This document shows, in pieces, positions 56,991-57,673 of a stretch of 64,000 nucleotides of DNA (position 1 is the first letter of the stretch; every line of letters starts with the position of its first letter). Made by a program: the position numbers and the translations under genes. The notes beneath the pieces were generated by a model. It was given only the letters and a program-made list of their open reading frames with translations, ran no database searches and had not been told where the DNA came from. This DNA is from Shigella phage SF1-1, in the sequence record PQ571307; one strand, given 5' to 3'.

Positions 56991-57306
56991 CAAAGAACCA
57001 CACGTATATACTGCACTGGTAGAGTACTTGAACAAAGAACGTAACAGGATCATTGCAGATTATCGTAAATTTAAACGTAGTAGTCTAAATCGTAAATACA
57101 TGCCACATGCAGCTTTTGACGCTACACGTGCAGTATTTCGTGCAAAGATTGCGGAAATGGATAATCTGCTTAAGCTTGCACGATTATCTATTCAGGTATC
57201 CAAAGTAACAGGGGTCACTCACTTCTTTGACTCCGATACTAAATCACTATATGCACCAGAAGCAGGTGAACAATTGATTTATCTACTTACCAAAAATAAG
57301 TGTTGA
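56983..57306 (+). CDS. hypothetical protein
   Basis: Internal start MANKEPH preferred. Confidence 0.45.
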   Translation: MANKEPHVYTALVEYLNKERNRIIADYRKFKRSSLNRKYMPHAAFDATRAVFRAKIAEMDNLLKLARLSIQVSKVTGVTHFFDSDTKSLYAPEAGEQLIYLLTKNKC

Positions 57307-57332
57307 CTTTTTTCAAAAAATATGCTACCCTA
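57304..57332 (+). promoter_or_regulatory. promoter-like element with palindromic spacer (copy 2 of 2)
   Basis: TTGACTTTTTTCAAAAAATATGCTACCCT; followed by shared CGAGCGATAGCGAGTA motif and an imperfect inverted repeat before the 57476 RBS. Confidence 0.45.
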
Positions 57333-57475
57333 ACCCCGAAGGGTCGAGCGATAGCGAGTATAGATTATGTAATAGATTAATCTCTATCGTTAGATGTTCG
57401 AAGAACAGAGATTTAAGTACTTGTTCTTATCGGTAGATGATCGTAAGATCAAGAACAATAATAGGAGAGTGTGTT

Positions 57476-57673
57476 ATGTTAGTCAGTGAAATACTACCTG
57501 ACTCTAATGGTAATCAGATCACTATTGATTGGTTTCCTGGTACTGGTACACTAGATCTAACTGCTGAATGGTCTGGTGATATTTATGGAGAAGGTGTATT
57601 ATCATTATCTACAGAACAAATGATCATCCTTCGTGACTTCTTAATTAGTTTAGATCTAGGAGAAAACAAATGA
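57476..57673 (+). CDS. hypothetical protein
   Basis: Internal start MLVSEIL after AGGAGAGTGTGTT. Confidence 0.45.
   Translation: MLVSEILPDSNGNQITIDWFPGTGTLDLTAEWSGDIYGEGVLSLSTEQMIILRDFLISLDLGENK

Follow-up and report, generated by a model that had tools for sequence, protein, structure and literature searches.

Location and organisation of the element

The sequence analysed here (hereafter the window) is a stretch of 64,000 nucleotides (nt) from Shigella phage SF1-1 (record PQ571307), and the element of interest is a promoter-like, palindromic cassette at about 57.3 kb, which precedes a small plus-strand open reading frame (ORF) beginning at 57476. The 2-kb region around the element is 94-99.5% identical to phAPEC8-like E. 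coli myoviruses, and the window derives from such a phage (genus Phapecoctavirus, subfamily Stephanstirmvirinae, about 150 kb), which is not of the T4 type. Genes are directed rightward up to about 23.5 kb, leftward from about 55.8 to about 23.6 kb and rightward again from about 55.9 kb on, and the GC skew tracks gene orientation across the window. None of the neighbouring ORFs in the window has a known function.

The element is composed of several parts on the plus strand. Its -35 hexamer, TTGACT (57303-57308), agrees with TTGACA at five of six positions and is followed by a spacer containing a T6-C-A6 palindrome, that is, a T-run and then an A-run (57308-57320), and by ATGC and TACCCT (57322-57331), which make up a TG-extended -10 (TG at 57323-57324, TACCCT at 57326-57331). 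A 12-nt palindrome, ACCCCGAAGGGT (57333-57344), is centred on G57338/A57339, the predicted start site, and is followed by a mini-hairpin, CGAGC-GATA-GCGAG(TA) (57345-57360), which was identified by pattern and covariance model and lies 7-23 nt past that site. Four TAGAT boxes (57361, 57373, 57391 and 57434) extend over 57361-57438 and include the direct repeat TATCGNTAGATG (57385-57396 and 57428-57439). The region ends with a ribosome-binding site (RBS), AGGAGAG (57463-57469), and the ATG at 57476 (together 57463-57478) of a 65-codon ORF; coding sequence and RBS are both annotated in phAPEC8 and ESCO13. The ORF (57476-57673, plus strand, 65 amino acids) belongs to phrog_25113, of unknown function, and contains two TAGATCTA palindromes.

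A sequence-only reading of the window had recognised in this element the second copy of one at 26866 and had described it as promoter-like and palindromic; both statements hold, and the two copies have the same strand orientation. The 16-nt sequence CGAGCGATAGCGAGTA occurs at 57345-57360 and at 26908-26923, both times on the plus strand; at up to three mismatches it has exactly two matches in the 64 kb, and two or more matches were obtained in none of 100 shuffles. A covariance model of the hairpin likewise picked out these sites, at 34.3 and 27.4 bits, ahead of the next candidate at 10 bits. On alignment of the two copies, similarity is confined to a core of about 60 nt, in which TTGACT, a 17-nt spacer (T-run/A-run, TGc), TACCCT, a 12-nt palindrome and CGAGCGATAGCGAGTA follow one another in this order. 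The copy at 57.3 kb (copy 2) is situated 1.4 kb inside the right-hand rightward unit, and copy 1, at 26.9 kb, sits in the leftward unit yet points rightward.

A tRNA/tmRNA scan gave no match in the window or over the motif. Rfam yielded no gathering-score match in the whole window, nothing meaningful at E <= 10 in 57290-57490, and no match over the motif in 34 related loci, where the sole matches were to ribosomal RNA (rRNA) and tRNA genes elsewhere in bacterial loci. Literature searches found no paper for the motif sequence itself and no RNA-seq study for this phage genus.

A promoter-proximal cassette conserved in related phages

A search of IMG/VR and JGI metagenomes with the pattern TACCCTAA...CGAGC-loop-GCGAG, filtered for a -35-like hexamer, yielded a family of 33 distinct cassette sequences. 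The conserved columns comprise TTGACT (or TTTTAC), the T-run, the A-run and ATGC, with TG present in 33 of 33; ATGC-TACCCTAA is nearly invariant, its TACCCTAA part being set by the search pattern itself. The columns of the -35 hexamer (-23 to -18) show T33/T29/G22/A29/C29/T32 of 33, and those of ATGC show A30/T33/G33/C30 of 33. The two runs of the spacer palindrome are present in nearly all cassettes around a variable centre; in copy 2 of phage phiWec179, ACTT...AAGT alone is retained. The start-site palindrome of the relatives has arms of 3-4 bp and a lineage-specific sequence, and its centre lies 6-8 nt past the -10 in 16 of 19 distinct versions.

Related genomes of about 150 kb carry two or three copies of the cassette (three each in the contigs UViG_2974717474_000001 and 3300014004_000001), and these few copies are syntenic across genera. 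They can be divided into three classes. Class 1 copies, to which copy 1 of the window belongs, are always opposed by an oncoming gene 70-135 nt away; class 2 copies are co-directional with their neighbours and have a leader of 100-175 nt; class 3 copies are followed by 200-335 nt without an ORF. Judged by sequence comparison, the copy at 57.3 kb falls in class 2 of this promoter-proximal cassette, which Stephanstirmvirinae-type phages have conserved. A common regulated gene was considered and rejected, the proteins encoded downstream of all motif-bearing loci falling in unrelated clusters.

The promoter-like part has a 17-nt spacer, TG one base before the -10, A at position 2 of the -10 and T at position 6. 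The earlier view of a promoter with a structured leader stands insofar as this is a plausible sigma-70 promoter, conserved in the 33 cassettes, but the whole is a multi-part, multi-copy cassette and not simply the leader of a gene. The 12-nt palindrome is centred where a sigma-70 start is expected, which would place its 5' arm upstream of any transcript made from this promoter; the palindrome thus cannot be part of the cassette's own RNA and would be a DNA-level feature. The terminator scan found no plus-strand terminator-like site between the upstream gene and the element at 57.3 kb, so read-through from upstream promoters is also likely.

Structure and variation of the GA mini-hairpin

The mini-hairpin consists of a C-G pair, tandem G.A/A.G pairs, a G-C pair and a C-G pair closed by a GNNA loop, its general form across the family being C-GA-GC-GNA/GNNA-GC-GA-G. 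Tandem G.A pairs in the C-GA-G context form sheared pairs in DNA and RNA alike. The corresponding sequence is ACGAGC-GAA-GCGAGU in the Justusliebigvirus phage Paula, CCGAGC-GAAU-GCGAGG in Citrobacter phage Tr1 and CCGAGC-GGGA-GCGAGG in phiWec179; the succession C-G / G.A / A.G / G-C / C-G is constant, and the loop and the outermost pair are variable. Over the 33 cassettes the loop is GAA in 15, GATA in 12, GGGA and GCA in two each, and GAAA and GAAT in one each. The sequence-only reading was right that a motif is shared by both copies, but what they share is, on this comparison, a hairpin with tandem G.A pairs and not a linear motif: the stem is kept and the loop varies (GAUA, GAA, GAAU, GGGA, GCA).

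Pairing extends into the flanks. Among 20 unrelated instances, 78% of flank cells can pair, a level reached by none of 500 column shuffles (68%); sliding the partner brings it down to 23-42%. The outer stems tolerate G.U pairs. With RNA parameters the hairpin is predicted in relatives at -3.5 to -8.5 kcal/mol.

The core GCGATAGC, present in both window copies, fits the consensus GCGNNAGC of mini-hairpin DNA, and 32 of the 33 cassettes match the consensus GCGNAGC/GCGNNAGC. According to a 2026 review by its discoverers, mini-hairpin DNA greatly exceeds its RNA counterpart in stability and resists single-stranded DNA-binding protein (SSB) and nucleases (PMC13037366). The phage cores GCGATAGC, GCGAAGC, GCGGGAGC, GCGCAGC and GCGAAAGC resemble the mini-hairpins of Hirao and co-workers, the known examples of which are at initiation sites, namely the complementary-strand origin of G4 (oric), ssiA of RSF1010 and the early promoters of the N4 virion polymerase (PMC13037366). 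Unlike these, the phage element adds tandem sheared G.A pairs (C-GA-G context) and a variable outer stem, and it is found on the non-template strand just past a sigma-70-type promoter in a double-stranded DNA myovirus.

Several other identities were rejected. The sequence ACTCACGATAGGGAG at one related locus (L033) resembles the T7-like promoter CACTATAGGGAG, which is excluded by the variation in loop length, the covariation of the stem and the occurrence in phages without such a polymerase. A hammerhead core, K-turn, sarcin-ricin/loop E motif, CRISPR repeat and CsrA site each lack agreement in key bases or bulges.

TAGAT boxes downstream of the cassettes

The three densest 150-nt windows of TAGAT/ATCTA in the 64 kb are 26989-27138 (seven boxes), 57552-57701 (five) and 57351-57500 (four), against a background of 2.7 per kb, and all are located just downstream of the two copies. 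In a set of 32 cassettes the boxes are enriched about sixfold past the -10, with 11.8 per kb over the first 200 nt and 5.6 per kb over the following 200, compared with about 2 per kb elsewhere, although the cassettes are phylogenetically related and these statistics overstate their independence. The boxes occur in both orientations, some with a central GATC, and nine of the ten TAGATCTA palindromes within 2 kb of cassettes are located 0-600 nt downstream.

In the window, TAGATCTA palindromes with a central GATC are found at 57552-57559 and 57651-57658, both inside the ORF 57476-57673, and at 27031-27038 and 28813-28820. Both boxes within the ORF encode Leu-Asp-Leu by means of CTA/TTA leucine codons. 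CTA is a rare leucine codon in E. coli. The boxes suggest a DNA-level constraint overlaid on the coding sequence.

The leader and the gene at 57476

A transcription start at G57338 would give a leader of 138 nt, in agreement with the roughly 140-nt leader and co-directional plus-strand gene described earlier and with the class 2 context. It contains a small hairpin of C-GAA-G type, GTTC-GAA-GAAC (57396-57406, plus strand; -2.5 kcal/mol as RNA), which is conserved in phiWec179, and the imperfect inverted repeat that the sequence-only reading had placed just before the RBS. The latter is confirmed: formed by TTGTTCTTATC (57421-57431) and GATCAAGAACAA (57447-57458) on the plus strand, it ends 4 nt before the RBS, has perfect 8-nt arms (57421-57428 and 57451-57458) and folds at -12.2 kcal/mol (z = -3.2), one of 200 shuffles folding as well. 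The segment 57384-57458 shares about 90% identity with phiWec179, in which the gene that follows is a different one, of 178 codons. The phiWec179 leader shows no compensatory changes relative to the window, so that conservation is the sole evidence for the leader element in this comparison.

Phages of other genera have different leaders. In that of Paula the Shine-Dalgarno sequence is enclosed in a 13-bp helix (z = -3.4), and in that of Tr1 a helix stops just before it. On this evidence a hairpin adjoining the RBS is a recurrent theme across genera, because the Paula and Tr1 leaders also have a helix at the Shine-Dalgarno sequence.

Attenuated expression of the 57476 gene, which had also been suggested, found no support. 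The hairpin 57421-57458 is followed by UAAUAGGAGAG and not by a U-tract, the terminator scan found no plus-strand terminator-like site in 57300-57480, and the RBS is left unpaired by the leader hairpin in this phage; downstream there is one weak terminator-like site. With no U-tract and a free RBS, attenuation by termination is not indicated. The folding predictions present the leader hairpin as neither terminator nor RBS trap in this phage, and attenuation is unsupported.

The sister copy at 26.9 kb

Copy 1 (26866-26923, plus strand) comprises TTGACT (26866-26871), TACCCT (26889-26894), the palindrome AAACATATGTTT (26895-26906) and the GA mini-hairpin (26908-26923). It is followed by a non-coding region (26925-27038, plus strand) with hairpins at 26944-26977, the inner part of which reads UUAC-UCAC-GAUA-GUGA-GGUA, and at 26987-27015; the region enters the 3' end of an oncoming minus-strand gene (27025-27234), whose ORF matches phrog_24123 over its full length. 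Eight TAGAT/ATCTA boxes are present in 26925-27097, seven of them within 26925-27038, including TAGATCTA at 27031-27038, and the eighth at 27093. The predicted copy-1 transcript folds better than shuffles (z = -3.0). No intrinsic terminator was found after either window copy.

There is no ORF directly downstream of copy 1 in its own direction, and the copy opposes its operon. The lack of a downstream gene and the presence of oncoming genes are true of every lineage carrying class 1. Since class 1 copies have no gene of their own and face oncoming genes, the cassette cannot be accounted for by gene expression alone. Several lineages share, in their class 1 copies, a second hairpin, UUUCAUG...CAUGAAA, with one compensatory change and covariation at two of 14 pairs.

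Other repeats were observed in these regions. A direct repeat, ATTGATAGGT, is located at 26816-26825 and 26847-26856, just upstream of the copy 1 -35, and a similar repeat, TTGATAGG, is present in phiWec179 (L040, 504-560). The minus strand of 45000-48600 carries about eight repeats of the form AAAAAGnnTTGACA-N17-TAnnAT before small early genes, each with a GC-rich hairpin of type GGGCGGCGGAAUGGUCCAGCCGCUC a few nt past its -10, and these look like cassettes of promoter and 5' stem-loop as in the PeSLs discussed below.

The GA hairpin in other phages and in bacteria

An exact 16-mer scan of IMG/VR found 34 loci (46 matches) in very different phages, with GC contents of 0.28-0.68; the controls gave five loci with a loop-permuted sequence of the same composition and 18 loci with an all-Watson-Crick version. 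A 17-mer scan of one genome per prokaryotic species found at least 120 loci, where about 69 are expected by chance on our own arithmetic. About a fifth of the prokaryotic matches listed have good outer stems, and their flanks pair slightly more than shuffles; directly repeated flanks are seen in 24 of the 120 listed, compared with seven in the control. The recurrence of the hairpin in unrelated phages and in bacterial metagenome-assembled genomes (MAGs) suggests that it is a generic structural module, not a phage-specific signal, and one not yet captured by annotation pipelines or Rfam.

The phage loci are of several kinds. Low-GC phage contigs of about 135-163 kb from sample 3300045988 (L011, 1700-2800; also L014, L018, L025 and L031), with the many in-frame TAG codons of amber recoding in their ORFs, carry three or four exact copies of the GA hairpin per kb. 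After each copy comes a variant GA hairpin that overlaps a Shine-Dalgarno sequence; in L011 a GIY-YIG-like ORF begins at 2798. In amber-recoded phages of about 155 kb the second hairpin, beside the Shine-Dalgarno sequence, keeps G.A/A.G while its neighbours covary (ACGAAC-GUA-GUGAGU; AUGAGC-GGA-GCGAAU). Contigs that look by eye, from their flanking ORFs, like T4-like marine myoviruses (L004, 2330-2700, minus strand; also L002, L012, L016, L020, L024, L032, L034, L035, L021 and L022) share a highly conserved non-coding region of about 300 nt between convergent genes. It contains an invariant hairpin, CCAUUGGUAGUGCUGAAUAGCACUACCAUGG, the GA hairpin about 75 nt later, and a second hairpin with compensatory changes (AGAUGAAC..GUUCAUCU / AGUUGGCC..GGCCAACU); Rfam gave no match to this conserved region. 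An uncultivated rV5-like phage of about 141 kb (L009, 2850-3090, minus strand; also L023 and L026) has TTGACA-N17-TAAGCT, 14 nt and an exact GA hairpin, then a long hairpin and a second promoter before the next gene. Going by its sequence, this locus looks like a stand-alone small transcript; BLAST against isolated phages gave no DNA match to it. Short BLAST matches in gene 67 of T-even phages were dismissed as coding-sequence coincidences.

In bacteria, Bacteroidota MAGs contain arrays of small hairpins (L080, 5300-5560; L053, 2150-2650; L062, 4350-4700; L074, 6050-6160; L095, 3670-3780), consisting of GA hairpins with GAA, GATA or GCA loops, and also GGC-GAA-GCC, separated by a constant, array-specific spacer of 6-8 nt (ATCCCGG, AATGAC, TAATTTC and others). 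Flavobacteriales/Crocinitomicaceae MAGs (L047, L048, L070, L078, L082, L088, L096, L102 and L120) have a conserved tRNA-trailer unit in the order tRNA gene, terminator-like hairpin, TTCTTTGAAGC, GGGWTC-ACGAGCGATAGCGAGTA-ATCCC and CTAATGTG-type repeats, the GA hairpin (GGGWUC-hairpin-AUCCC) being about 155 nt downstream of the tRNA gene. In the rRNA operon of the Firmicute Intestinibacillus (L119, 1765-1805) a GA hairpin with an 8-bp outer stem, AAGCUUAA...UAUAAGCUU, is located 13 nt after the spacer tRNA and before the 23S gene. Literature matches to the variant core GAGCGCAGCGAG were cloning-vector sequences, the context of which we take to be the pMB1/pBR322 region beside the origin, ...GACCGAGCGCAGCGAGTCAGTGAGCGAGGAAGCGGAAG..., possibly overlapping the primosome assembly site.

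Comparison with known regulatory systems

Similarity was noted to the PeSL (promoter-early stem-loop) cassettes of T4-type phages (PMC2839356, PMC4122927), in which a repeated sigma-70-like promoter with an adjacent stem-loop is found among small early genes, with differing neighbour ORFs in related phages. The cassette likewise pairs an early sigma-70 promoter with an adjacent stem-loop and is repeated (two window copies, two or three per related genome). However, PeSLs are numerous, flanking variable ORFans and marking the borders of indels, and their stems consist of simple G/C- or A/T-runs, while the phage cassette has two or three copies, an unusual conserved -10 (ATGC-TACCCTAA), the G.A hairpin, the start-site palindrome and TAGAT boxes, and one of its classes points against its operon. 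In the dual control by Aca1/Aca2 (PMC13551039, PMC6765145) a promoter palindrome, a start site and a conserved hairpin in the first transcript nucleotides occur together, as they do here, but the Aca2 site, TTCG-N6-CGAA, is unrelated and has no match to the element, and no helix-turn-helix gene was detected in the phage operon.

Put of HK022 and nut of lambda are also structured elements directly behind early promoters, one per transcription unit. They differ in that no sequence or fold similarity to the cassette is demonstrated, no obvious terminators are there to override, and one copy is without an operon. The ops element, which reportedly (Zuber and colleagues, 2018) forms a non-template-strand DNA hairpin in the paused complex for the recruitment of RfaH, is a further leader-region mini-hairpin of GNNA type. 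It has GCGGTAGC where the phage element has GCGATAGC, and nine of 12 bases are identical to GGCGGTAGCGTG. The ops consensus GGCGGTAGNNTG is nevertheless matched by AGCGATAGCGAG at just nine of 12 positions, with A at positions 5 and 11 so that G5 and T11 differ, and the GAA loops of the relatives are without T6. In addition, an elongation bubble would not expose the full length of the phage hairpin, and the hairpin occurs in phages of hosts that lack RfaH.

Possible function of the cassette

Our preferred interpretation, advanced tentatively, is that the element is a specially regulated start module in which the hairpin serves as a structural signal, on the non-template strand and/or in the nascent RNA, and a phage protein recognises the TAGAT boxes. 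Sequence and conservation suggest that host sigma-70 RNA polymerase would start at the extended -10 promoter (TTGACT, 17 nt, TGc-TACCCT), at the predicted G57338 in the middle of the small palindrome. The first 25 or so transcribed bp carry C-GA-GC-GNNA-GC-GA-G, a structure that emerges from covariation; as to the strand on which it acts, opening of the duplex by transcription would let the non-template DNA strand snap into a compact hairpin with sheared G.A pairs, and the nascent RNA may do likewise, more weakly. The hairpin could thereby serve as a structure-specific mark of a small promoter class, pausing or modifying the early elongation complex or loading a factor; the GCGN(N)AGC mini-hairpins known from N4 promoters, ops sites and ssi priming sites offer parallels. 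The TAGAT/TAGATCTA boxes enriched over the next 400 bp or so are probably sites for a phage-encoded dimeric DNA-binding protein that would control the module. The output at 57.3 kb would be the 138-nt structured leader with the 65-codon ORF, and at 26.9 kb the module would fire against the leftward operon, giving only a structured non-coding or antisense transcript of about 120 nt. The start-site palindrome, the mini-hairpin DNA consensus and the palindromic TAGATCTA boxes look, from their sequences, like DNA-level features, and the best conserved parts of the cassette overall resemble signals acting in the DNA or co-transcriptionally.

Several observations weigh against this start-module interpretation. 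TACCCT agrees with TATAAT at just three of six positions and a simple promoter scan did not call the site; transcription initiation at the element is a prediction from sequence and conservation. The RNA fold is weak in the window copy 57345-57360 (-1.9 kcal/mol, with a U.U closing pair), and the minimum free energy fold pairs the copy-2 motif with 57378-57394 instead, an alternative pairing that is not conserved in phiWec179. With nearest-neighbour DNA parameters the hairpin comes out at about 0 to -1.4 kcal/mol, but these parameters have no terms for sheared G.A pairs and so neither support nor refute it. In the low-GC recoded phages the hairpin adjoins Shine-Dalgarno sequences, which argues for an RNA role there. 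The relatedness of the cassettes qualifies the TAGAT statistics, and no DNA-binding protein encoded near the element was identified among the neighbouring ORFs of the window.

An origin or priming site for replication activated by transcription offers another, rather unlikely, explanation. The promoter would open the duplex (through an R-loop of the kind known at T4 oriF/oriG or ColE1), the non-template strand displaced by it would fold into an SSB-resistant entry signal of ssi type for primase or helicase, and the TAGAT(CTA) boxes would be initiator iterons. This would accord with a mini-hairpin consensus typical of phage and plasmid priming sites, with two or three copies per genome at conserved places whatever the gene direction, with iteron-like boxes in both orientations, some with a central GATC, with a start-site palindrome at the DNA level, and with the closeness of copy 2 (1.4 kb) to the divergent junction and minimum of cumulative GC skew at about 56 kb. 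The skew, however, simply follows gene orientation, the slightly raised AT content (62% against 58%) does not amount to a marked unwinding element, there is no adjacent initiator or replicative helicase, the nearby helicase being UvrD-like, and in other phages the hairpin abuts ribosome-binding sites. Another reading is a leader acting purely as RNA, with GA hairpin and inverted repeat controlling the stability or translation of the 57476 mRNA by 5' protection, as a protein operator or as an attenuator. Folds that beat shuffles in copy 1 (z = -3.0), in the Justusliebigvirus leader with its buried Shine-Dalgarno sequence (z = -3.4) and in the inverted repeat (z = -3.2) speak for it, as do the G.U pairs tolerated in outer stems, the second GA hairpin over the Shine-Dalgarno sequence of recoded phages and the precedent of Aca regulators with a promoter DNA repeat and an RNA hairpin right after the start. 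Such a leader is nonetheless improbable: in this phage no U-tract follows and the RBS stays unpaired, neither the GAA triloop nor the GAUA loop is one of the stable RNA loops, class 1 has no gene to regulate, downstream genes differ among phages, and the TAGATCTA boxes within the ORF and the start-site palindrome would be left unexplained.

About as improbable is a family of small non-coding RNAs, in which the cassette would produce a small or antisense RNA of about 100-130 nt with a 5' GA hairpin, copy 2 being such a module fused to an mRNA. Class 1 copies always precede a structured non-coding stretch facing an oncoming gene, the UUUCAUG...CAUGAAA hairpin with its one compensatory change recurs across lineages, class 3 copies have 200-335 nt free of ORFs, and the rV5-like contigs L009, L023 and L026 have their own promoter and hairpin upstream of a second promoter; against this, no terminator was found, covariation support is thin (two of 14 pairs), no Rfam family matches and no target is evident. 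A mobile regulatory cassette of PeSL type, serving mainly for the recombinational shuffling of early genes and with its repeats kept by gene conversion, would explain why the same cassette and leader stand before different genes in the window and in phiWec179, and has precedents in the promoter and stem-loop repeats of T4-type phages and in the PeSL-like repeats at 45-48.6 kb of the window itself. It seems very doubtful, as the cassette has only two or three copies, syntenic across genera, and recombination would not explain the purifying conservation of particular bases or the hairpin in unrelated phages and bacteria. We give similarly little credence to processive antitermination of put/nut type, by which a promoter-proximal element in the nascent RNA or non-template strand, once per transcription unit, would render RNA polymerase terminator-resistant. 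The two or three copies per genome just past promoters do recall putL and putR (about 70 nt, two stem-loops, putL right behind PL), and GCGGTAGC of ops resembles GCGATAGC, but there is just one weak terminator-like site downstream, class 1 copies lead into no operon, and identity to ops is nine of 12 bases, the RfaH-read G5 and T6 not being conserved (the commonest loop is GAA).

More speculatively, the GA mini-hairpin may be a widespread, undescribed single-strand structural signal of phages and bacteria, set in this phage family on the non-template strand immediately after a dedicated promoter, in which case the cassette with its TAGATCTA iterons might be a transcription-activated origin or a factor-loading site (for priming or an ops-like elongation factor) and not a gene leader. 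This broader proposal is a possibility we consider doubtful, less well placed than the start module itself. The hairpin has been seen in T4-like marine, amber-recoded low-GC and high-GC phages, as well as in MAG arrays, tRNA trailers and an rRNA spacer.

How rV5/phAPEC8-like coliphages, a group used in phage therapy, control their transcription and replication is all but unmapped. Two or three promoters per genome with a conserved structural signal and their own repeated boxes would provide a concrete handle on this control, and the promoter class may act as an origin, a timing switch or a source of non-coding RNA.

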